From the IMG/VR virus record IMGVR_UViG_3300025295_000098, positions 1-64,000 of that record: a stretch of DNA of 64,000 bases. One strand, written 5' to 3'. Within the stretch, counting starts at the first letter, position 1, and every line of letters starts with the position of its first letter. Positions 4,129 to 30,317 of the stretch are shown one piece after another. Both the position numbers and the translations under genes were made by a program. The notes under the pieces were generated by a model. The model was given only the letters and a program-made list of their open reading frames with translations. It was not told the DNA's origin and did no database searches. This stretch comes from a virus. Lineage: Duplodnaviria > Caudoviricetes.

Positions 4129-4894
4129 CGGCTTTGGCCTCCGGTGCGGAGGAGAGGGCGGCGTCGGCAAGATCCTGGACCGTGCGATGAAAGGCTGATT
4201 GCGCATCGCACATCGCGTGATATTCAGGATCGACCTTTATGCTCCAATTGCCACGATCTCGCTCGGCTCTCGCCACTGCAAGGCGGGCGTTATAGGCGGC
4301 GGCCGCATCGATAACGGCTTTGCGGGCCGCAACGATCTGGCTGAAAGCATCCCCTCCCTTCGCGCCTTGCGCCTCTACATGCTGGGGAGGGATGGAGAGA
4401 GCGGAAATGATGCGCTGCTCGTAATCTGCTTGTGCGGCCGCTTTGGCAGTTTCCATGGTCCCGCTATCCGAATGATGCGCTCGTTCCGTCGACCAAGAGC
4501 CGTTATCATAGGCCCAATAGGTCCCGCAGATCGTAGTGGCCTCCAAACCTTTCATGCCACCGGCAGGCTTCCACTCTAGCGGCTTGATGGTATGGGGGGT
4601 GTCATATTGGCACCGACCGACGCAGTGATATTCTGGCATGCCAACTTCTTGCGCGTACTGGCACTCCAGCGTCTTCACCTTCACCGCCTCCGCCACGGGC
4701 TTGGAGGGTTCTGCTCGACGGTTCCATGCTGCAACTGCCTCCTCGCGCTTCTCAACCATGTCTGAGAACTCTGGCGCATCGACGGGAGGGCCGCCGCTGA
4801 AGCAGCCAATGCACTTGACGATCATGTCACCGCCAAACAGGCCGTGTGCTACGTTCCGGCTGCCGCAGAACGGGCAGGCGATGGGGTCTGTCAT
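4118..4894 (-). CDS. Lar-like (restriction alleviation) Zn-finger protein with a long C-terminal extension
   Basis: N-terminal CPFCGS...CIGC...EAVAAWNRR pattern. Confidence 0.6.
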   Translation of the reverse strand: MTDPIACPFCGSRNVAHGLFGGDMIVKCIGCFSGGPPVDAPEFSDMVEKREEAVAAWNRRAEPSKPVAEAVKVKTLECQYAQEVGMPEYHCVGRCQYDTPHTIKPLEWKPAGGMKGLEATTICGTYWAYDNGSWSTERAHHSDSGTMETAKAAAQADYEQRIISALSIPPQHVEAQGAKGGDAFSQIVAARKAVIDAAAAYNARLAVARAERDRGNWSIKVDPEYHAMCDAQSAFHRTVQDLADAALSSAPEAKADEN

Positions 4895-5684: not shown

Positions 5685-6286
5685 GCAGCCCTCGCGATCT
5701 GGTCGATGTTCCGCTTGTCGACGGTGAAGGTGTAGGCAACCACCCATGGGTTTGCGTTCCAAGCCTCGGGGCCGTTGATGGTTTCCCAAAGATCCGCGTA
5801 CCAGTCCCGGGCGCTGCTCCACTCGTCGCCGCCGAGATGCATCGCAGTCTCATTGGCGAAAACGCGTCCTGAAGCCTTACCCTTGAAGCAGCCCTCGGCG
5901 ACCGCATCGGCCTCGCTAATATCCTGCAGCCGCTCCACCCGCACGTCGGTGACGGTGAGCGTCAGGCGTGAGGCCCAGCGGGGCATATGGATGGACGGTA
6001 TGCTGTCCCGCTTCCAATCCCACATGACGAGACCGTGTGGCGTTACTGAGCCGTCCGCTGCATAGGTGATCCAGCGGTGACCTTGATCGTTGCTGTCAGC
6101 TTTCAGCGTCTCGCGGACCCATAGGCGATCACCAGTAAAGACCTTGGTGTGAACCGGCTTCCATCCATTCGAAGTCAGTTCGAGCGTTCCGTAGGGGCTC
6201 TTCAAAGCACGGCGCGTCTGGGTTTTGCGGCCATCGATAAGGGCGCGGATCATAGAGCCGCTGAAGAGCAGAGGACGATCAGCCAT
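5681..6286 (-). CDS. ASCH/PUA-like phage protein
   Basis: PLLFSGSMIRALIDGRKTQTRR...GDRLWVRE...PSIHMPRWASR, a common phage family. Confidence 0.6.
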   Translation of the reverse strand: MADRPLLFSGSMIRALIDGRKTQTRRALKSPYGTLELTSNGWKPVHTKVFTGDRLWVRETLKADSNDQGHRWITYAADGSVTPHGLVMWDWKRDSIPSIHMPRWASRLTLTVTDVRVERLQDISEADAVAEGCFKGKASGRVFANETAMHLGGDEWSSARDWYADLWETINGPEAWNANPWVVAYTFTVDKRNIDQIARAA

Positions 6287-6855: not shown

Positions 6856-7265
6856 GCGGCCGCCCTCCGATATGCCAGAGTGAAGGGAAGGCGGCTCGAC
6901 AGAACCCACATGTGATACATGTCGGCCTCGTCGATCAGCTCGGACGCCGGCGGCATCACCTGGACGGCGGTCGCTTCTTCCCCGCAGATTTCGTTCTTGA
7001 TGCGCTGCATGTCGCGCCATGGCGGCTCAAGCTGCGAGGCGGTCCGGATGGCGAGGTGGATTACTTCGTTGCCCTGCTCGTCGAGGAAAGGACGGACGAG
7101 GACGACGTAGATATTGTTTACCTGGGCGCGGCGGACTTCCTTGTTCCATCCCTTCCCGCCGGGAATACCGTCTGGCATGTCGGTGATGCGCCATAGGCCC
7201 CAGTCACCTTTCAGGCCCTTGCGCTCGAAGGCGCGGGCGGCGAGGCGTTGACGACGGTTGCTCAT
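6852..7265 (-). CDS. Conserved hypothetical phage protein
   Basis: HLAIR...PPWRDMQRIKNEICGEEATAVQVMP...DEADMYHMW. Confidence 0.65.
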   Translation of the reverse strand: MSNRRQRLAARAFERKGLKGDWGLWRITDMPDGIPGGKGWNKEVRRAQVNNIYVVLVRPFLDEQGNEVIHLAIRTASQLEPPWRDMQRIKNEICGEEATAVQVMPPASELIDEADMYHMWVLSSRLPFTLAYRRAAA

Positions 7266-14841: not shown

Positions 14842-15198
14842 ATGAATGAACTATTCGCCTCGTTTGTGTCCCCCGAAAAAGTGATGTCTGGGAAGTTTCG
14901 CGTCCACGCCATAGTTGGTGACGAGATGGAGCCAACGCTGCGCGCCGGCCGGGATTATGTCCTGACCGCACCGGTTACGACTTACGAGGGCGAGGGGCTC
15001 TATTTGGTCGATATAGGTCTGGGCATCGAGCTCTTCCGCGTCACCAACACTCTCGGCCCGGCCGGCGAGCTGCTGCTGTCGCGGGAAAACGAGCACTACC
15101 CGCCCCGTCGCTTGCCGAGGCATGAGTTCAGTGACGCTGTCGTCGGGATCGTCGTCGCCGACATAAGGACGAGAGATGAACGGTTTCTCAGGCGCTAG
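14842..15198 (+). CDS. Stand-alone S24 peptidase-like domain lacking the catalytic Ser/Lys
   Basis: GDEMEPTL (canonical GDSMxPT) and ELFRV (canonical VKRL); LSRENEHY aligns with cI ISSDNPRH; no HTH. Confidence 0.7.
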   Translation: MNELFASFVSPEKVMSGKFRVHAIVGDEMEPTLRAGRDYVLTAPVTTYEGEGLYLVDIGLGIELFRVTNTLGPAGELLLSRENEHYPPRRLPRHEFSDAVVGIVVADIRTRDERFLRR

Positions 15199-15947
15199 AT
15201 CGTGAACCGCCCGATATAGCGGCCGATGATCTGGATCTCATCGAGGTTCAGGACGCGGGTCATGTGGCGGGGATTATCCGACGAGATCTGAACCGTGATA
15301 GTTTCGGAGCCTGGGCTCGATGTCACCTCCAGGCGTTTAACGACGACGCCGCCGAACTCATCGGCCAGCGCATAGACGCCTGGCGGCGATGGGACGCGAT
15401 GGCGAGTGTCGATGAAAACGACGTCGCCGTCTTCGATCGTCGGCGTCATAGAATCTCCTCGCGATGGAAACGCGGCGACATGCGGAGCCTGGACACCCAT
15501 GCGTCCGAGCATCCACTCCGGTAATCTCCAATGGTCCCTTACTGCCTCCTTGTGGAACGTGATCCCGTTCCGAGATGTGTTCTCGACGATAGCCATCCCA
15601 CCACCGCCCAAGCCGGCGATAAGGTCAATCTCTGGGATGTCCTTCCCGGCTGGCTGATTTGAGGGTTCGACGTGGTGATCGTCGTCATCGTCAGGATCAA
15701 AGCTCCGCACCAGAGCGTCGTCTCTCTTCGGCGGCTGGTTGAGCATCAGTGCTTCAACTGTGGTCCCGAGTAAGGGCGCCATCTTCTCAGCTCGATCCCT
15801 TTTCAGCTGGGAATGGTCATTTGCCAAGCGGTTCACCGTCGCGCGGGAAACATCCAGCGCTTCAGCGAGCTCCTCCTGTGAGCCAATATTTGATGCTTTC
15901 AGAAAAGGTTCGAGCCAGTTTTTCGACATGGCAATTTTATCCGCCAT
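15195..15947 (-). CDS. cI: CI-like repressor (XRE HTH + S24 autopeptidase)
   Basis: SQEELAEALDVSRATVNRL; AG.GGG cleavage-site region; GDSMTPT and VVKRL intact; start could be 15929. Confidence 0.92.
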   Translation of the reverse strand: MADKIAMSKNWLEPFLKASNIGSQEELAEALDVSRATVNRLANDHSQLKRDRAEKMAPLLGTTVEALMLNQPPKRDDALVRSFDPDDDDDHHVEPSNQPAGKDIPEIDLIAGLGGGGMAIVENTSRNGITFHKEAVRDHWRLPEWMLGRMGVQAPHVAAFPSRGDSMTPTIEDGDVVFIDTRHRVPSPPGVYALADEFGGVVVKRLEVTSSPGSETITVQISSDNPRHMTRVLNLDEIQIIGRYIGRFTI

Positions 15948-15962
15948 CTCTGGCGAACGATC

Positions 15963-16024
15963 TATGCCATAAAATGCTACACTGCCGTTGACAATCGCCG
16001 CGAAGTGTAGCAGTAATTGCGACA
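15963..16024 (+). promoter_or_regulatory. pR-like promoter with operator palindromes
   Basis: TATGCCA-N5-TGCTACA (15963-15981), TTGACA (15988-15993), TGTAGCA-N5-TGCGACA (16006-16024). Confidence 0.65.
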
Positions 16025-16221
16025 TGACCCTTGAAGATTACATCCATACGCACACCACTGTAACAGCTTTTGCGGCATTGCTGGGCAAGAGCCGGGCGCA
16101 AGTGCACCGGTACATGCGCGGTGAAAATCTGAGCAAGAGCGTCATCGAAGAGATTTGCCGCGTCACGGACGGGGCGGTCGAGCCGAAGTCATTTTTCGAA
16201 GCTGCGGAGAAGGCAGCATGA
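16024..16221 (+). CDS. cro: Cro-like HTH protein
   Basis: 65 aa, divergent from cI; TVTAFAALLGKSRAQVHRYMRG. Confidence 0.85.
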   Translation: MTLEDYIHTHTTVTAFAALLGKSRAQVHRYMRGENLSKSVIEEICRVTDGAVEPKSFFEAAEKAA

Positions 16222-19831: not shown

Positions 19832-21973
19832 ATGCAGAATAGTGCGCCGTTGATCGTTGATAGCTTCGCAGGTGGCGGCGGTGCGTCGACCGGTATCGAG
19901 ATGGCTCTTGGCCGCTCGCCCGACATCGCGATCAACCACAATGCTGATGCGCTGGCTCTTCACGCTGCCAACCATCCAGAAACGCTGCATCTTTCCGAGA
20001 ATATCTTCAAGGTTGATCCTCTCGATCACGTCGCCGGCAAGCATGTCGGTCTCGCCTGGTTCTCTCCCGACTGCAAACACTTCTCGAAGGCCAAGGGCGG
20101 CAAACCAGTCGAGCGCAACATCCGAGATCTGGCCTGGATCATCGTCCTCTGGGCCGAGCGCGCGAAGCCTGACGTCATCATCATGGAGAACGTCGAGGAG
20201 TGGAAGGAATGGGGTCCGCTTATCGAAACCCCACGCGGGCTGATGCCTTGCCCTGACAGCCGGGGCCAGACCTTCAAGAAGTGGTGCAAGGCGATGAAGC
20301 GGGCTGGTTACAAGCTGCAGCATCGTGAGCTTCGCGCCTGCGATTATGGCGCGCCTACCATCCGCAAGCGGCTCTTCGTCGTCGCGCGTCGAGACGGCCA
20401 GCCGATCGTATGGCCGGAGCCGACCCATGGCGCGCCGACCGATCGCGATGTCATCGCCGGCAAGAAGCTTCCATGGCGCACGGCGGCCGAGATCATCGAC
20501 TGGTCGCTTCCTTGCCCATCGATCTTCGACACTTCAAACGAGATCATGGCGAAGTTCGGTCTCCGCGCGATCCGCCCTCTGGCTGACGCGACGATGGCCC
20601 GCGTTGCCCGCGGCACGAAGCGTTATGTTCTCGATTCAGCGCGGCCGTTTCTCGTCCAAACTGGCTATGGCGAGCGCCGAGGTCAGGATCCTCGGTGCTT
20701 GGATGGTGACGCTCCGCTCGGTACCGTCGTCGCCGGCGGGGTCAAGCATGCGGTCATCTCGCCTTCCGTTACGCGCTTCAACACCGGCGCGACCGGGAGC
20801 GCGATGGACGAGCCTGTTCCGACCGTCACTGCCAACAGCCATATCAAGAAGCCCGGCGGTGCTGCGCCTCTTGGGATGATCGCTCCGAGCCTGTCTGTCT
20901 TCTATGGTTCTGGCGCCGGCGGCAAGGATCGGTCTGCCAGCGCCGAAGAGCCGGTGAGGGTGGTCACGACCGAAAACCGCCATGCGGTGGTCGCGCCGCA
21001 CCTTATGACGATGCGGAATTCTGGCAAGCCGTTCAACGGTGCTGACGAGCCGACACATACGATCACCGCAGGCGGTGCTGGCCTGTCCGTCGTCGCGCCC
21101 GTGCTGACCTATGCCCAGCAGGGAGGTGCAAACCGCTCAGTCGAGGATCCACACCACACCATCACAGCCAGCAAGAAAGACCAGAACGCCGTCATCATCC
21201 CGACGCTGGTCGGATGCGGTGGCCGGGCAGGGCAGTCCCGTCCCCGCGGCGGCGACGAGCCGATGGCTACGGTTACCGCGAAGGCCGACGTCTGCACGGC
21301 CGCCGTCTTTGTCGCCCAGCACAACAACGACAGCCGTCGTATCGGCGGCGTCAATCCCGGCCGGGCGGCTGATGAGCCGATATCGACTGTAACCTCAACC
21401 GGCGCGCAGCAAGGCCTTGTGTCCGCTTTCGTGTCGCGCCAGTTCGGTGTCGGTATCGGCCAGGGGGTCGATGAGCCGTCGGCCACGGTCACTGCGGGTG
21501 TGAACAAGTCGGCGCTCGTCGCTCCGCACCTGCATGCCTACTACGGGTCTGACCAGGACACGCCTGAAGATGAGCCGTTCCACACGCTGACGACGAAGCC
21601 GCGCTTCAGCCACGTCGAGGCTTCAATCAGCGCACCGCCTTTCACCGAAGACCAGCACTCACGGGCGCGCGAAGTAGCGGAATTCCTGCGATCCTATGGC
21701 TTCTGGGATGATCGCCAGTTTGTCACCCTGACCATCGGCGACGCCGAGTTCGTCATCGTCGACATCGGCATGCGCATGCTCACGCCGCGCGAGCTCTACT
21801 CCGCTCAGGGTTTCCCGGTCGATTACAAGATCGACGCCGATGCCAACGGCAGACCTTTTCCGAAGAACGTCCAGGTCTCATGCGTCGGCAATTCCGTGTC
21901 GCCGCCCGTCGCCGCCGCGATCGTGGCCGCCAACTGCAATCACCTCATCGAATATCGCGAGGCGGCCGAATGA
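19832..21973 (+). CDS. C5-cytosine DNA methyltransferase with an expanded repetitive variable region
   Basis: Motif I DSFAGGGG, IV FSPDCKHFS, VI MENV, VIII DYGAPTIRKRLF, IX RMLTPRE, X GNSVSP; about nine D/E-P-x-x-T-(V/I/L)-T repeats. Confidence 0.92.
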   Translation: MQNSAPLIVDSFAGGGGASTGIEMALGRSPDIAINHNADALALHAANHPETLHLSENIFKVDPLDHVAGKHVGLAWFSPDCKHFSKAKGGKPVERNIRDLAWIIVLWAERAKPDVIIMENVEEWKEWGPLIETPRGLMPCPDSRGQTFKKWCKAMKRAGYKLQHRELRACDYGAPTIRKRLFVVARRDGQPIVWPEPTHGAPTDRDVIAGKKLPWRTAAEIIDWSLPCPSIFDTSNEIMAKFGLRAIRPLADATMARVARGTKRYVLDSARPFLVQTGYGERRGQDPRCLDGDAPLGTVVAGGVKHAVISPSVTRFNTGATGSAMDEPVPTVTANSHIKKPGGAAPLGMIAPSLSVFYGSGAGGKDRSASAEEPVRVVTTENRHAVVAPHLMTMRNSGKPFNGADEPTHTITAGGAGLSVVAPVLTYAQQGGANRSVEDPHHTITASKKDQNAVIIPTLVGCGGRAGQSRPRGGDEPMATVTAKADVCTAAVFVAQHNNDSRRIGGVNPGRAADEPISTVTSTGAQQGLVSAFVSRQFGVGIGQGVDEPSATVTAGVNKSALVAPHLHAYYGSDQDTPEDEPFHTLTTKPRFSHVEASISAPPFTEDQHSRAREVAEFLRSYGFWDDRQFVTLTIGDAEFVIVDIGMRMLTPRELYSAQGFPVDYKIDADANGRPFPKNVQVSCVGNSVSPPVAAAIVAANCNHLIEYREAAE

Positions 21974-22170
21974 CCCCTCCCGAAGAGATGATCGCCTGGC
22001 TCGATCGCCGCATCGCCTCCGCCATGACATGGCTCGACGACCACGGCAAAGGCTCTAAGCGTCCTCGTCCTCAGCACGAGATCGAAACGAAGGAATACGA
22101 CATCGCCCGCTTTGAAGAGATCAAGGCGGCGTATGTGAAGGCGCTTGAGCGGAAAGGGCAGGCTACATGA
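21970..22170 (+). CDS. Small hypothetical protein
   Basis: MTPPEEMIAWLDRRI..., coupled on both sides. Confidence 0.6.
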   Translation: MTPPEEMIAWLDRRIASAMTWLDDHGKGSKRPRPQHEIETKEYDIARFEEIKAAYVKALERKGQAT

Positions 22171-22958
22171 GCCAGTCAAACCGGCAGATAAAATTCTATG
22201 TCGGGCTTCACCAGCCGGCGGATGCCAAGCATTTCGATTTGGCCTGCATCAGCATCAATCGCCTGCGTCGGCGGAAGAAGAAGGTTCCGTGTGGCGATGT
22301 CCTAGTCGATAGCGGTGCCTTCACCGAACTTTCAAAGCACGGTGCTTATAGGCACTCGGTCGAGGAATATGCCGCTGAGCTTTATCGGCTCTATAGCACG
22401 GGCGTTGTCCACATCGCCGCGGCGGTCGCTCAAGATTATATGTGTGAGCCCTTCATCCTGGCAAAGACTGGGATGACGATAGAAGATCATCAGCGGTTGA
22501 CGATCGAGCGCTACGACTGGCTGCTCGCCGAGTTGGGCCGGTTGTTCCATGGGAAGGTCCCATTCCACGTCATGCCCGTTCTTCAGGGTTTCGCGCCGCA
22601 GGACTATGCCAATCACGTCCGGATGTATGGCGATAGACTGAAGAACGGCATGTGGGTCGGCGTCGGTTCGGTCTGCAAGCGACAGGGAGATCCCCGGTCG
22701 ATCATCGCCGTTCTGCAGTCGATCTATGCCGCCCGGCCTGATCTTGCTCTGCATGGCTTCGGCGTCAAGAAGACGTCACTGCTCCATCCTGGAGTTTGCG
22801 AATTGCTTTCCACCGCCGACAGCATGGCGTGGAGCTACGCAGCTCGCAAGCAGGACAGGGATTCCAATGATTGGCGCGAGGCGAAATCCTTCGTTGAGAC
22901 GATCCTCGACGCCGCCGGCCAGATTTTCAAGCCATGGCAGTTGGAGATGTTCGCATGA
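22167..22958 (+). CDS. TGT-fold (DpdA-like) base-exchange protein
   Basis: VDSGAF, QDYMCEP, PVLQG, VGVGSVC, LHGFGVK and ADSMAW follow the tRNA-guanine transglycosylase / DpdA motif order. Confidence 0.7.
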   Translation: MSQSNRQIKFYVGLHQPADAKHFDLACISINRLRRRKKKVPCGDVLVDSGAFTELSKHGAYRHSVEEYAAELYRLYSTGVVHIAAAVAQDYMCEPFILAKTGMTIEDHQRLTIERYDWLLAELGRLFHGKVPFHVMPVLQGFAPQDYANHVRMYGDRLKNGMWVGVGSVCKRQGDPRSIIAVLQSIYAARPDLALHGFGVKKTSLLHPGVCELLSTADSMAWSYAARKQDRDSNDWREAKSFVETILDAAGQIFKPWQLEMFA

Positions 22959-23110
22959 TCAGCGCGGCAGATATCGAGAAGGCTTTCAGCGAGCGCGTCC
23001 CGTACGCCATTGCGACCTATAGCGCGGACAGCAAGACCGCCAAGCGCGATCCGTCGAAGGCCGAGATCAAAGCGCGACTACTATCCCTGTTGGAGAGGGT
23101 GGCAGCATGA
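22955..23110 (+). CDS. Small hypothetical protein
   Basis: 51 aa, ATGA-coupled on both sides, ends RVAA; absent from the ORF track. Confidence 0.5.
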   Translation: MISAADIEKAFSERVPYAIATYSADSKTAKRDPSKAEIKARLLSLLERVAA

Positions 23111-24246
23111 TCGAAACCCGCTCCATCCTCGACGGCCGCTGCAAGATCTATGTCGGCGATTGCATCGAGGCTATGCGCTCTATGGCGGCGAACTCGATCG
23201 ACTGTGTCGTTACGTCCCCGCCGTATTGGGGCCTTCGCGACTATGGCGTTGACGGCCAGATCGGCCTTGAACCAACGCTTGGCGAACACCTCGATGTGAT
23301 GGTCGCCGTCTTCCGCGAAATCCGCCGCGTCCTCAAGGCGCATGGCACGGTATGGATGAATTACGGCGATTGCTACGCCGCTCAGCCGAACGGGAAATCC
23401 GCGGCAGCATATAAGGCCGACGGCAGTGACGATCGGACGTTCCGGGATAAGCCGTTCTCGACCGTCGGGCCCATCTACGACCCAAACCATTCGAAAGCGA
23501 GAGGCGCCTTCTCGTCTGGCGATCGTCAGTCCCACATAGAGAGCGGCGGCCGAGTTGTCGCCGGCGGATTCATGAAGCCCAAGGATCTATGCATGATCCC
23601 GAACAGGCTCGCCATCGCTCTTCAAGATGATGGCTGGTGGGTCCGGTCCGAGATCATCTGGAACAAGACCAATCCTAAGCCCGAGTCGATCGACGATCGG
23701 CCTGCCGCCGTTCATGAGAAGATTTTTCTGCTCACCAAAAGCGAGCGGTATTTCTTCGACGCTGAATCGCTGAAGGAGCCGACGACCGGCAACGCTCATG
23801 CTCGCCGCAGAGATGGTCAGTACAAGCCGGCCAAGGGCAGCACAGCAGGACAGAATAGGGAGGGAACGTGGGTTGAGACCTATGTCCCGGATCTCCGCAA
23901 TGGCCGGAACGTCTGGACCTTCAATATCGAGGGTTACCGCGGAGCCCACTTCGCCACATTCCCACGTGAACTAGCCCGTCGCTGCATCTTGGCTGGAACA
24001 CCGAAGACGGTCTGTGGCTGCTGCGGCGCTGCTGAGGGCTGTGGCCCGATCTGCGAAACGTTCGAGCGTCTTCCCGGCGTAGTGCTTGATCCCTTTGGTG
24101 GCTCTGGAACAGTCGCGGTGGTTGCGGAGCAGTATGGCTATCGAAGCGCGTTGATCGAGCTGAAGCCAGAATATGCCGACATCGCGGAGCGCCGCATCAC
24201 CGGCGCGCCTGCCATCTCGCTCGAGAACGAAGAGGAGGCAGCATGA
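23107..24246 (+). CDS. Beta-class amino-methyltransferase (N4-C or N6-A)
   Basis: Motif IV VTSPPYW precedes motif I VLDPFGGSGT. Confidence 0.92.
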   Translation: MIETRSILDGRCKIYVGDCIEAMRSMAANSIDCVVTSPPYWGLRDYGVDGQIGLEPTLGEHLDVMVAVFREIRRVLKAHGTVWMNYGDCYAAQPNGKSAAAYKADGSDDRTFRDKPFSTVGPIYDPNHSKARGAFSSGDRQSHIESGGRVVAGGFMKPKDLCMIPNRLAIALQDDGWWVRSEIIWNKTNPKPESIDDRPAAVHEKIFLLTKSERYFFDAESLKEPTTGNAHARRRDGQYKPAKGSTAGQNREGTWVETYVPDLRNGRNVWTFNIEGYRGAHFATFPRELARRCILAGTPKTVCGCCGAAEGCGPICETFERLPGVVLDPFGGSGTVAVVAEQYGYRSALIELKPEYADIAERRITGAPAISLENEEEAA

Positions 24247-24398
24247 CCTTCCTCGAAGCCTACGGCATCCACGGCCCAGACGTTGAGCGCATCGCCGAAG
24301 CCCTCGGCATCACGCCACCAGAGGCTGATCGCCTCATCAACGAAGCAATGGAGCGTCGGCACCAGCAGCGCGTCCGGCGCAGTTTGAGGCGCGCATGA
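24243..24398 (+). CDS. Small HTH-like protein
   Basis: VERIAEALGITPPEADRLIN; coupled on both sides. Confidence 0.45.
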   Translation: MTFLEAYGIHGPDVERIAEALGITPPEADRLINEAMERRHQQRVRRSLRRA

Positions 24399-25273
24399 CA
24401 AACCCGTACAAAATCGATGGCCCAGCGCTGATCTCCTTCTCCGGCGGACGCACCTCGGCGTACATGCTCTATCAGATCCTGCAGGCGCATGGTGGCGTCC
24501 TCCCTGATGATGTTGTCGTCTGCTTTGCCAACACCGGCAAGGAGCGTGAGGAAACGCTTCGCTTCGTGCATGAGTGTGGCAGCAGGTGGAACGTCAGGAT
24601 CAACTGGCTGGAATTCCGCCTTGGAAAGCCAGGGTTTGAGGAAGTCGGCTTCAACAGCGCCTCCCGTGAGGGAGAACCTTTCGAGCAGCTGATCGCATGG
24701 AAGCAGCGCCTTCCGAACGGCCATGAGCGCTGGTGCACGTCATTCCTTAAGGTGCTGCCGATGTTTGCCAAGATGCGCGATAAGCTCGGGCTTGAGCCTG
24801 GGCAGTATCTCGAATGCATCGGGCTTCGGGATGACGAAGGTCTCCGGATATTCAACGCGATGGCGCAGGGTGAAAAATACGGCCGCCGTATTTTTCACCC
24901 TCTCGCCAAGGCAAAGGTTCGCAAACCGGACATTTGGAAATTCTGGCTTGGCGATAATCGCGATCCGAAGAGCCTTGTCCACCCATTGCCACAGGGCTTC
25001 GATCTCGGTCTCTATCCTTGGGAGGGAAATTGCGACCTCTGCTTCCAAAAGGGCAAAGGCATTCGCAAGCGGTATATCCGCGAAAACCCGAAGTCGCCGC
25101 ATTGGTGGTCTCGTCAGGAGGTCACGCAAAATGGATGGTTCGACAAGCGCGACACGGTCGCCGAACTTATGGAGCAGGTCTGGTTTTCACCGAGCTTCTT
25201 CGACGCCGAATCCGACGATGACATGGAATACGATGTCGAGTGCGGCCTTCACTGCTCGGGAGAAGCCGCATGA
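24395..25273 (+). CDS. PAPS-reductase-like (adenine nucleotide alpha-hydrolase / PP-loop) protein
   Basis: ISFSGGRTSAY, FANTGKE...L.F, R.CT..LK, IGLRDDE, GNCDLCF, C-terminal ECGLHC. Confidence 0.85.
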   Translation: MTNPYKIDGPALISFSGGRTSAYMLYQILQAHGGVLPDDVVVCFANTGKEREETLRFVHECGSRWNVRINWLEFRLGKPGFEEVGFNSASREGEPFEQLIAWKQRLPNGHERWCTSFLKVLPMFAKMRDKLGLEPGQYLECIGLRDDEGLRIFNAMAQGEKYGRRIFHPLAKAKVRKPDIWKFWLGDNRDPKSLVHPLPQGFDLGLYPWEGNCDLCFQKGKGIRKRYIRENPKSPHWWSRQEVTQNGWFDKRDTVAELMEQVWFSPSFFDAESDDDMEYDVECGLHCSGEAA

Positions 25274-27417: not shown

Positions 27418-27878
27418 CCCGTCTAGCTCGCGTCGACATGGATGCCGTCGCTCCGCTCTATCCTAGCGACAAGGTCGCCGGCCGGGTAGCGGCAAGGGGA
27501 GAGCATTTCGATTGGCAGCCAAACCAGGCCACCAAGGTCCATTCGTCTGATCCGCTTGCCGTCCGTCGCCCTACGGAAAACGAACTGTCGAGGCCTGAAT
27601 ACACGGATCTGACGGGCGCTAAGATCGGCCGGCTGACCGTGGTGGGCGTTGCAGCGGAGATAATAGGCAACGGCCAGAAGTGGGTAGTGCGCTGCGTCTG
27701 CGGATCATACGAGACCCGCAAGGCCAGGTACATCAAGGCCTGTGTCGCCGGCAACAATCCGGGAAGCAGCGATCCGATGTGCGACGCGTGCGGCTATACC
27801 CGGAAGCTTCAGCTTGGCTACCACAACCCCAAAAAGGCGGCCGCGGCGGCGCAAGCGATCATGGAGGCGGCTCGATGA
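27414..27878 (+). CDS. Hypothetical Cys-containing protein
   Basis: DLTGAKIGRLTVVG...WVVRCVCG...CDAC, a motif often adjoining HNH/AP2 proteins. Confidence 0.6.
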   Translation: MTRLARVDMDAVAPLYPSDKVAGRVAARGEHFDWQPNQATKVHSSDPLAVRRPTENELSRPEYTDLTGAKIGRLTVVGVAAEIIGNGQKWVVRCVCGSYETRKARYIKACVAGNNPGSSDPMCDACGYTRKLQLGYHNPKKAAAAAQAIMEAAR

Positions 27879-28387
27879 GCGATCTTCTCATGACGAGACG
27901 CGTCGTGTTCTCGGATTGTGGCCTTTACCGCTATCTCCTTGAGCACGACTTCGGCGGGACCGGTCCGGTTATCTCGATCGGGATGGTCAACCCATCCAGC
28001 GCGGATGAGGAAAAGAACGATCCTACCATGACGAAGATCGACGGCTTCGCCGCGCACCTCGGCGCCAGCAAGGTGAAGGTCTGGAACAAGTGCGCGTTGC
28101 GCAACAAGGACGTGAAGGCGCTCCGCGCGGCAGCTGACCCGATCGGGCCGGAAAATGACGCCTACATCGAGCAGGCGATCCGCGATGCAGATATTCACAT
28201 CGTCGCATGGGGACCGCTTGCCAAGCTTCCGCGACCTCTCCGCAACCGATGGCGCGATGTCGTGGATGTCATGACCCGCGCTGGCTGCCGGCCGATGTGC
28301 TGGGGCACTGCCGGCGACGGGCAGCCGCGCCACCCGCTGATGGTCGCCTACGCCACGCCCCTAGGCCCATGGGAGGCGCCACGGTGA
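27875..28387 (+). CDS. DUF1643-family protein
   Basis: FSDCGLYRYLL...GMVNPSSAD...DPT...VAWG...PRHPL. Confidence 0.85.
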   Translation: MSDLLMTRRVVFSDCGLYRYLLEHDFGGTGPVISIGMVNPSSADEEKNDPTMTKIDGFAAHLGASKVKVWNKCALRNKDVKALRAAADPIGPENDAYIEQAIRDADIHIVAWGPLAKLPRPLRNRWRDVVDVMTRAGCRPMCWGTAGDGQPRHPLMVAYATPLGPWEAPR

Positions 28388-28605
28388 CAGACATTCCCGT
28401 CGACGAAATCAAGATCGAGGTCTGGCCCATCTCCGGCATTCACGAACGAGGCGGCCAGCATGTTGGAACCTGCCCGGGTGTGCGCATTACGCATCTTCCG
28501 AGCGGCATCCATGCTTACGTCGATATCGGCCGATCCCAACACATCAACAAGACCATCGCAATGGACATGATCCTCGCGGCGATCACTCATCCGAAATTCC
28601 GATAA
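28384..28605 (+). CDS. Stand-alone class I release-factor catalytic (GGQ) domain
   Basis: EIKIEVW...RGGQHVG...GVRITHLPSGI...RSQHINK..AM aligns with RF1 domain 3 (GGQHVN..DSAIRITHLPTGI...RSQHKNK..A). Confidence 0.85.
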   Translation: MTDIPVDEIKIEVWPISGIHERGGQHVGTCPGVRITHLPSGIHAYVDIGRSQHINKTIAMDMILAAITHPKFR

Positions 28606-28630
28606 TCCGAGCGGCGGCTCATGAGAGGAA

Positions 28631-29323
28631 ATGAAAATGGCGGCACTGGCATTGCAAGAGCAGGACACACGAGATTTCGCTGATATAGTCGCGCAACGGC
28701 GGAAGCGGCTTATCGGCCGAGATTGGTACGCGATCCGGACTGCCCCCGGCACACAGCGAATGGCCCGACATGTCGAAGACGCTCCGATCCATCGTATCGG
28801 AGAGAGCATCATCGAGCGCAATCTCCGCAACGAGGGGATCAGCGTCTACATGCCGGCGTATTGGTACGAGGGCATTCACCACCGCAACCGGAAGGTCATC
28901 CAGCGTCGTCTGCCGCTGTTGGTCGGATATGCGTTCGTGAACCTCGAAAACCTGAATTTCGAGAGGGTGCGCGACGTCGACGGCGTGGTGTGTTTCCTCC
29001 GGTCCGAGTTCGGTCCGCTCCGGTTCAGTGGAGACGATCTTGCCGTCATCGCTGCCGAAGAGTTGACGCGGCGTCAGGAGTTCCGGCGCGAACGGATCAC
29101 CCGAATCCAAAATGAAACCGCCGGACAGGCCATGCAGCTCCGCGGCAATCTCCGCAAGATCCTGCCGAAGGGCAGGGGCAATCGCATCAACCTCAAGGAT
29201 CAAGCTCTCCTCACCATCAAGGACTTGAAACCGGAGATGCAGAGCAAAGTCATGGGGATGTTGCTCCAATTGGAGCAGTTAGAGGCATATGAGGGGCTTG
29301 AAACCATAGATCGTGTTGCGTAA
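28631..29323 (+). CDS. NusG/RfaH-paralogue antiterminator (Q-equivalent position)
   Basis: NGN domain: WYAIRTAPG...IERNL...VYMP...PLLVGYAFV...DGVVCFL; C-terminus not KOW-like. Confidence 0.85.
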   Translation: MKMAALALQEQDTRDFADIVAQRRKRLIGRDWYAIRTAPGTQRMARHVEDAPIHRIGESIIERNLRNEGISVYMPAYWYEGIHHRNRKVIQRRLPLLVGYAFVNLENLNFERVRDVDGVVCFLRSEFGPLRFSGDDLAVIAAEELTRRQEFRRERITRIQNETAGQAMQLRGNLRKILPKGRGNRINLKDQALLTIKDLKPEMQSKVMGMLLQLEQLEAYEGLETIDRVA

Positions 29324-30239: not shown

Positions 30240-30317
30240 TGTCGGAGTAGAGCAGCCCGGTAGCTCGCTTGGCTCATAACCAAGAGGCCGCAGGTTCGAA
30301 TCCTGCCTCCGCAACCA
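30240..30317 (+). tRNA. tRNA-Met-like (CAT), initiator-type body
   Basis: D arm GAGC-AGCCCGGTA-GCTC, anticodon arm CTTGG-CTCATAA-CCAAG, T arm GCAGG-TTCGAAT-CCTGC, encoded ACCA; irregular top of acceptor stem. Confidence 0.9.

Follow-up and report, generated by a model that had tools for sequence, protein, structure and literature searches.

What does a release-factor catalytic domain do when a phage encodes it with nothing else attached? To our knowledge, the peptidyl-transferase centre is the only place where GGQ domains act, and every characterised GGQ factor has a second module that licenses entry and decides when to fire. These second modules are a codon reader in RF1 and RF2, an mRNA-channel probe in ArfB and ICT1, a damaged-decoding-site reader in PrfH and a partner-binding extension in mtRF-R. 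We know of no dedicated bacterial factor for ribosomes that sit on intact mRNA with the A site empty, or for split 50S subunits that still hold peptidyl-tRNA. Here, we analyse a 73-aa GGQ-domain protein of ~8 kDa (mini-GGQ) encoded in a 64,000-nt stretch of phage DNA (the window), which represents most of a 78.6-kb IMG/VR provirus record. The nearest cultured relatives of this Rhizobium-type provirus are Sinorhizobium phage phiLM21 and the Rhizobium phages RHph_TM3_3_3 and N28_2. The features of the window used below are as follows.

15195-16025, minus strand: CI-like repressor gene.
27875..28387, plus strand: DUF1643 gene, upstream of mini-GGQ and predicted to be translationally coupled to it (context only; the -1 gene in 1 of 42 loci).
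28371..28376, plus strand: Shine-Dalgarno-like GGGAGG, 7 nt 5' of the GTG start, read from the sequence.
28384..28387, plus strand: GTGA start/stop overlap, the GTG of the mini-GGQ gene lying over the TGA of the DUF1643 gene.
28384..28605, plus strand: mini-GGQ (RF-1 domain) coding sequence, 73 aa, GTG start and TAA stop.
28450..28458, plus strand: GGC GGC CAG, the GGQ motif (residues 23-25), invariant in 39 aligned close homologues.
28582..28602, plus strand: C-terminal motif I-T-H-P-K-F-R (residues 67-73), nearly invariant and always the end of the protein.
28631..29323, plus strand: NusG-like (NGN) late antiterminator (context only; phrog_25909, E 2e-57; the +1 gene in 7 of 47 loci).
30241..30317, plus strand: phage tRNA-Met(CAT) (context only; a feature of this phage lineage).

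Mini-GGQ is the last gene of a rightward early operon that runs from ~18 kb and includes genes for a C5 methylase, DpdA, an N6/N4 methylase, DnaA-like and initiator proteins, an NT5C nucleotidase and the DUF1643 protein. After a gap of 25 nt it is followed by the NusG-like antiterminator, an HNH gene, the tRNA-Met(CAT), the small and large terminase and the portal. Its position just before the antiterminator is thus the same place as that of the lambda nin region before the Q equivalent. The GTGA overlap predicts translational coupling of the DUF1643 and mini-GGQ genes, and a 4-nt overlap of the upstream stop with the mini-gene start is found in ~22 of 55 mini-type loci (from 99 IMG/VR relatives, 80 loci were kept, of which 55 are of the mini type). 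An alternative 132-aa ORF from ATG 28207 was rejected, given that it lies in another frame over part of the DUF1643 gene and that homologues begin at the GTG position. Read-through of the TAA was also considered. A six-frame PF00472 search (39.2 bits) gives a match that extends 7 codons beyond the stop (28603-28626), over the RBS region of the next gene, and a frame change leads the homologues P0033 and P0051 into that stretch ('ERRL') as well. The post-stop stretch is the RBS of the next gene, and the extended match was judged to be chance or an assembly artefact.

The protein matches the Pfam RF-1 family PF00472 with 37.7 bits against a cut-off of 35 (E 2.2e-9, profile positions 6-70 of 116), and the best PDB match by phmmer is E. 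coli RF1 217-278, aligned to residues 4-67 at ~E 1e-6. Identity to RF1/RF2 is 38-44%, and the identical residues cluster in GGQHV, RITHLPxGI and RSQHxNK, the RF signature blocks around the catalytic loop. At an identity of ~40%, the 'near residue-for-residue' match to RF1 domain 3 claimed in the initial annotation is too strong a wording. The NCBIfam prfA, prfB and prfH models each score 40-42 bits, through domain 3 only and far under their whole-protein cut-offs. The full-length RF architecture with domains 1 and 2/4 is absent (TIGR00019, 42 vs 423 bits; TIGR00020, 41 vs 370 bits).

An AlphaFold2 model based on 78 relatives has a pLDDT of 86.4, with the GGQ loop as its least confident part. 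The model consists of strands at residues 9-14, 32-37 and 43-46, the GGQ loop, a helix at 52-67 and a 6-residue tail. The GGQ lies in the loop that connects the first strand to the second, and the three strands, the loop and the helix alpha-7 of the domain-3 fold are all present. The top matches by Foldseek and VIA-align are domain 3 of ribosome-bound RF1/RF2 (TMq 0.73, Z 7-8.6). In the structure alignment, model residues 1-73 correspond to E. coli RF1 214-285, and the protein is therefore essentially a whole domain 3 that stops where the RF switch loop would begin. Sequence, PF00472 match and model agree with the original description of a GGQ domain alone, without a codon reader and without an ArfB tail, and the model bears out that the protein ends right after the helix. 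The chain stops at residue 73, 6 residues past the helix, with neither a decoding domain nor a basic tail, and its 7 acidic and 7 basic residues give a net charge of about zero.

Compared with the known GGQ factors, mini-GGQ is closest to RF1/RF2, whose domain 3 has the same fold, GGQ loop and signature blocks and provides the best sequence and structure matches of the families tried. In contrast to RF1/RF2, it has no domain 1, no domains 2/4 with their PxT or SPF codon readers, and no switch loop. Smaller differences are found within the domain itself: mini-GGQ reads GGQHVG whereas RF1/RF2 read GGQHVN, the loop before the GGQ is 3 residues longer in the mini-GGQ clade, and the ITHPxFR end is unique to the mini-GGQ family with no RF1/RF2 counterpart. 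ArfB/YaeJ and ICT1/mL62 likewise have a GGQ domain without a codon reader, and they release peptides independently of the codon. However, ArfB probes the empty mRNA channel with a basic helix on a linker of ~40 residues, and mini-GGQ has neither of these. In a Rhizobium host genome, the ArfB-like protein ends in ~45 residues rich in Lys and Arg, a tail that mini-GGQ lacks. The structural match to YaeJ (2rtx, Z 6.0), spread over chain residues 1-101, is weaker than those to RF1/RF2. PrfH is also a shortened RF-like protein with a GGQ (structural Z 6.8-7.8), but it has ~200 aa, a domain-2-like module and linkage to rtcB, compared with the 73 aa of mini-GGQ. The PrfH model TIGR03072 scores mini-GGQ at 40.2 bits against a cut-off of 166.65, and there is no RtcB (PF01139) match anywhere in the 78.6-kb provirus record. 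Finally, mtRF-R (C12orf65/MTRFR) with MTRES1 is also a GGQ domain without decoding, and it works on the large subunit with an open A site; the mini-GGQ model matches mtRF-R on the split mitoribosomal large subunit (7a5h chain C) with Z 7.2. The C-terminal extension of mtRF-R, which mediates the contact with MTRES1, is missing in mini-GGQ, and no linked S4-domain gene was seen near mini-GGQ. PMC9757039 describes MTRES1 as the recruiter of mtRF-R and states that the factor serving 50S-peptidyl-tRNA in bacteria is unknown.

A word-index search found 81 close homologues of 68-113 aa, nearly all 70-77 aa, with 56-93% identity (a 52-aa fragment at 68% identity was left out). They occur in alphaproteobacterial prophages, with Rhizobium, Neorhizobium and Brucella/Ochrobactrum as named sources, and NCBI calls them 'peptide chain release factor-like protein'. 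Named genomes with close relatives include Rhizobium, Ochrobactrum, Xanthobacteraceae, Sphingomonas and Sphingopyxis. An alignment of 39 homologues has seven invariant positions (P15, G23, G24, Q25, H37, S51 and A59), so that the GGQ, the conservation of which the initial annotation had wanted checked, is retained throughout. The C-terminal AAITHPxFR, absent from RF1/RF2/ArfB and overlooked in the initial annotation, is nearly invariant in the same alignment. In Nei-Gojobori comparisons with the window gene, close relatives have a dN/dS of 0.06-0.25; over 312 pairs the median is 0.33. By these measures, mini-GGQ is a real gene under purifying selection. A search of four host genomes with the RF-1 profile recovered RF1, RF2, an ArfB-like gene and the prophage mini gene from each, which makes the phage gene an addition to the machinery of the hosts checked, not a replacement. 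Recent capture from the host was rejected: in a Rhizobium genome with a homologue, mini-GGQ is just 40% identical to RF2 and 42% to RF1, and BLAST gave no match between mini-GGQ and the ArfB-like protein of that genome.

We tentatively propose, with somewhat less than even confidence, that mini-GGQ triggers peptidyl-tRNA hydrolysis independently of the codon, on 70S ribosomes or 50S subunits with a lastingly empty A site. From the sequence and the model we infer the following mode of ribosome binding, catalysis, substrate choice and benefit. A stand-alone copy of domain 3 would be made from the last accessory gene of the phage early operon and would dock as a monomer on the A-site side of the 50S peptidyl-transferase centre, where the GGQ loop would insert and the P-site peptidyl-tRNA would be hydrolysed without codon reading. 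Without a decoding domain or a sensor of the mRNA channel, the protein would owe its selectivity to kinetics. Its weak binding would lose to competitors on elongating ribosomes and win where the A site is empty for long, and the targets would include stalled ribosomes, whether their mRNA is intact or cut, and split 50S subunits that have kept their peptidyl-tRNA. The ITHPxFR motif may replace the missing anchor or cap the truncated helix. For the phage, the benefit would be that stalled ribosomes are recycled during infection, for example after host nucleases have cut tRNA or mRNA.

The strict conservation of the GGQ and the RF blocks, together with the nearly invariant C-terminal motif, argues that the protein still works at the ribosome, and mtRF-R is a precedent for a GGQ factor that acts on the large subunit without a codon reader. 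The strongest argument to the contrary comes from E. coli ArfB/YaeJ, whose GGQ domain alone (deletion 101-140) remains in the soluble fraction, does not bind ribosomes and has no detectable hydrolase activity (PMC3950681). Further points against a codon-independent trigger are the missing basic tail, the net charge of about zero, and hosts that already have RF1, RF2 and an ArfB-like gene. A bolder version of the proposal is unlikely. According to it, mini-GGQ would be a self-sufficient codon-blind release factor, the smallest known, that acts on empty-A-site ribosomes on intact mRNA or on split 50S-peptidyl-tRNA, with ITHPxFR as a new ribosome anchor, and the phage would use it to counter defences that cut tRNA or mRNA.

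Beyond the close homologues, an exhaustive cluster-representative search gave 330 matches at E<1e-3, and most of the best 150 are 65-95 aa. Approximately 100 of 161 small members end in [AG][LI]T[HS]Px[FY][RK]. N-terminally extended relatives of 105-190 aa have no other Pfam domain, and they still carry the motif at the very end. In the ESM Atlas the neighbours are RF-1 clusters with 76-358 members, of which 59-82% are viral. Judged from these searches, the family of ~70-aa GGQ-domain proteins is large and mostly viral. PHROGs 20323, 19918 and 35727 are phage families named 'RF-1 domain peptide chain release factor', and the match to the 73-position profile of PHROG 20323 covers positions 6-57 (E 3.5e-7, 31 bits). 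The matches to these families are weak (31-33 bits), which suggests that the alphaproteobacterial clade is a distinct branch. A tblastn search against 50,697 phage records gave 27 matches, and among those inspected there was no confirmed mini homologue. The inspected matches are full-length host release-factor genes: H4 is annotated as RF2, H17/H18 are annotated as RF1, and two unannotated matches are RF2 ORFs. The family is already catalogued in PHROGs and NCBI under names that reflect the domain only, and it is functionally uncharacterised. Our literature search found no functional study of small phage GGQ-domain proteins, and the word 'phage' does not occur in a 2019 review of release-factor evolution. 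In terms of architecture, mini-GGQ is a new variant of a known domain family.

The GGQ is kept in 135 of the 161 small members of the wider family, and the remainder read GGM, GGL, SGQ, TSGM and similar. The fold and the RF signature blocks persist even in these relatives. That approximately one-sixth of the wider family is without a canonical GGQ suggests that binding, and not catalysis, may be the common denominator. It also favours an alternative in which mini-GGQ is a non-catalytic occupant of the A site or peptidyl-transferase centre, on ribosomes or on 50S subunits. Such a protein would block or tune RF1/RF2, ArfB, tmRNA or tRNA and modulate termination, read-through or rescue without peptide release, and the altered GGM, SGQ, GDQ and TSGM forms are indeed conserved in other phages. 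However, the RF glutamine can be replaced in several ways with hydrolysis retained in vitro, so relatives that look 'dead' may still be active, and in the clade studied here the GGQ is invariant under purifying selection. An inhibitor would also need to bind tightly, but there is no evident anchor, and the GGQ domain of ArfB does not bind by itself. We regard a non-catalytic role as doubtful. As a separate observation, five loci on phage contigs of 88-181 kb (L063, L064, L065, L072 and L073; match 6001-6129) encode an N-terminal mini RF-like domain together with a C-terminal domain of ~120 aa. The GGQ is lost in the fused genes of L063, L072 and L073, and in all five loci four paralogous genes of 116-183 aa lie 3' of the fused gene.

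A missing second module could also be supplied by another protein, and the genomic neighbourhood bears on this. The initial annotation had considered a separate phage adaptor, for which the survey of homologue neighbourhoods offers no support: the -1 and +1 genes differ among 42-47 loci, and clustering of four genes on each side (71 loci) gave no shared family beyond close relatives. The -1 genes (42 loci) are mixed and include GcrA, DnaA-C, DUF5131, ligase and TROVE, with DUF1643 once, and the +1 genes other than the NusG-like antiterminator encode polymerase, exonuclease, gp32 and others. When the -1 and +1 genes were scanned against Pfam and PHROG, their functions likewise proved to be mixed. 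With neighbouring genes that are not conserved, a linked adaptor is unsupported and was rejected. Another alternative is a two-piece rescue factor in which mini-GGQ would be the catalytic half, delivered through its ITHPxFR tail by an unlinked adaptor of the phage or the host. The adaptor could be an ArfA/BrfA-like peptide, or else an S4-domain protein of the Hsp15/RqcP kind, comparable to MTRES1 for mtRF-R. As a nearly invariant motif confined to the C-terminus, ITHPxFR resembles a docking peptide, its place at the very end of the extended relatives fits such a function, and ArfA-RF2 and MTRES1-mtRF-R are precedents, but no gene family recurs within four genes of either side across 55 loci. 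We consider the two-piece arrangement rather improbable.

The same survey separates the setting of this phage from that of the family. The antiterminator and the tRNA pointed out in the initial annotation are present here, but as family traits they do not hold: of 47 loci, 7 have the antiterminator as the +1 gene, and 7 of 47 dereplicated loci carry a tRNA within 6 kb, which in most cases is this lineage's own tRNA-Met. Both are traits of this phage lineage, and a family-wide linkage to either was rejected. The contigs with diverged members are all phage-like. In these the gene lies at the end of a replication/recombination block, adjoining HNH, RecA-dependent nuclease-like or YAcAr genes, and shortly 5' of portal/head genes or of an integrase. 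The lineage tRNA itself has some unusual features. By eye, the acceptor stem of tRNA-Met(CAT) at 30241-30317 has G1/A72 and U2/C71 unpaired, and its relative in locus L020 starts with C1 opposite A72, a tRNA that we take to resemble bacterial initiator tRNA. In locus L022 (IMGVR_UViG_3300047472_000125), a well-formed tRNA with the anticodon CTA, of the amber-suppressor type, lies at 7078-7151, 0.86 kb 3' of its mini-GGQ gene and in the place where relatives have tRNA-Met. ARAGORN calls it tRNA-Pyl, and the 12 kb examined for TAG recoding contain no clear TAG-interrupted genes.

Mini-GGQ genes lie in an accessory region between the replication and packaging modules, which holds DpdA and DNA methylases here and Acb1, Acb3 and Acb2/Tad1-like genes in relatives. 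Past the +1 gene, a survey reaching 5 kb downstream in 38 loci covered 102 genes on the same strand with products of at least 120 aa, among which we found 14 large-terminase and 11 portal matches, three Acb1, one Acb3 and one Thg1-like gene. The anti-CBASS genes and the Thg1-like tRNA-His guanylyltransferase near mini-GGQ genes suggest a counter-defence hot spot. In the early operon of the window, genes for a C5 cytosine methylase, DpdA (of the 7-deazaguanine DNA transglycosylase family), an N6/N4 methylase and a protein with weak similarity to PAPS reductase follow one another at 19832-25273. Locus L001 has an Acb2/Tad1-like gene (4320-4646) two genes 5' of mini-GGQ. Membership of mini-GGQ in a defence system was rejected, as no PADLOC model matches the protein or its neighbours.

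This setting, rich in counter-defence genes both here and in related phages, is consistent with a decoy or sponge that never acts on the ribosome. Mini-GGQ would then tie up a protein whose target is RF domain 3. This could be PrmC, a glutamine methyltransferase, or a host defence or toxin by which release factors are sensed or modified. In the PrmC-RF1 complex (2b3t, Z 7.8), the model fits onto RF1. However, the PADLOC result gives no support, the C-terminal motif is without an RF counterpart and would be needless for a pure mimic, and we know of no RF-sensing defence of this kind. A decoy is distinctly less probable than the alternatives above. That mini-GGQ is a functionless, decaying fragment of a captured host release-factor gene, as its size and content of one RF1/RF2 domain might suggest, is effectively refuted by its conservation and very improbable, given the identity of just 40-42% to RF1/RF2 of the homologue-carrying Rhizobium, the uniform length, the intact RBS, a dN/dS well below 1, a conserved motif of its own and a spread over unrelated phage types.

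Codon-independent peptidyl-tRNA hydrolysis at empty A sites thus remains our tentative reading of mini-GGQ. Being tiny and soluble-looking, the protein can be tested directly in existing release assays. Interest is tempered by the fact that databases already label the family by its domain. Even so, a bare catalytic domain that is widespread and under selection would be a sensor-free factor, a factor with a new short anchor or an unknown partner, or a fold repurposed for binding. Each of these outcomes would inform how access to the peptidyl-transferase centre is controlled and how phages handle host ribosomes during infection.
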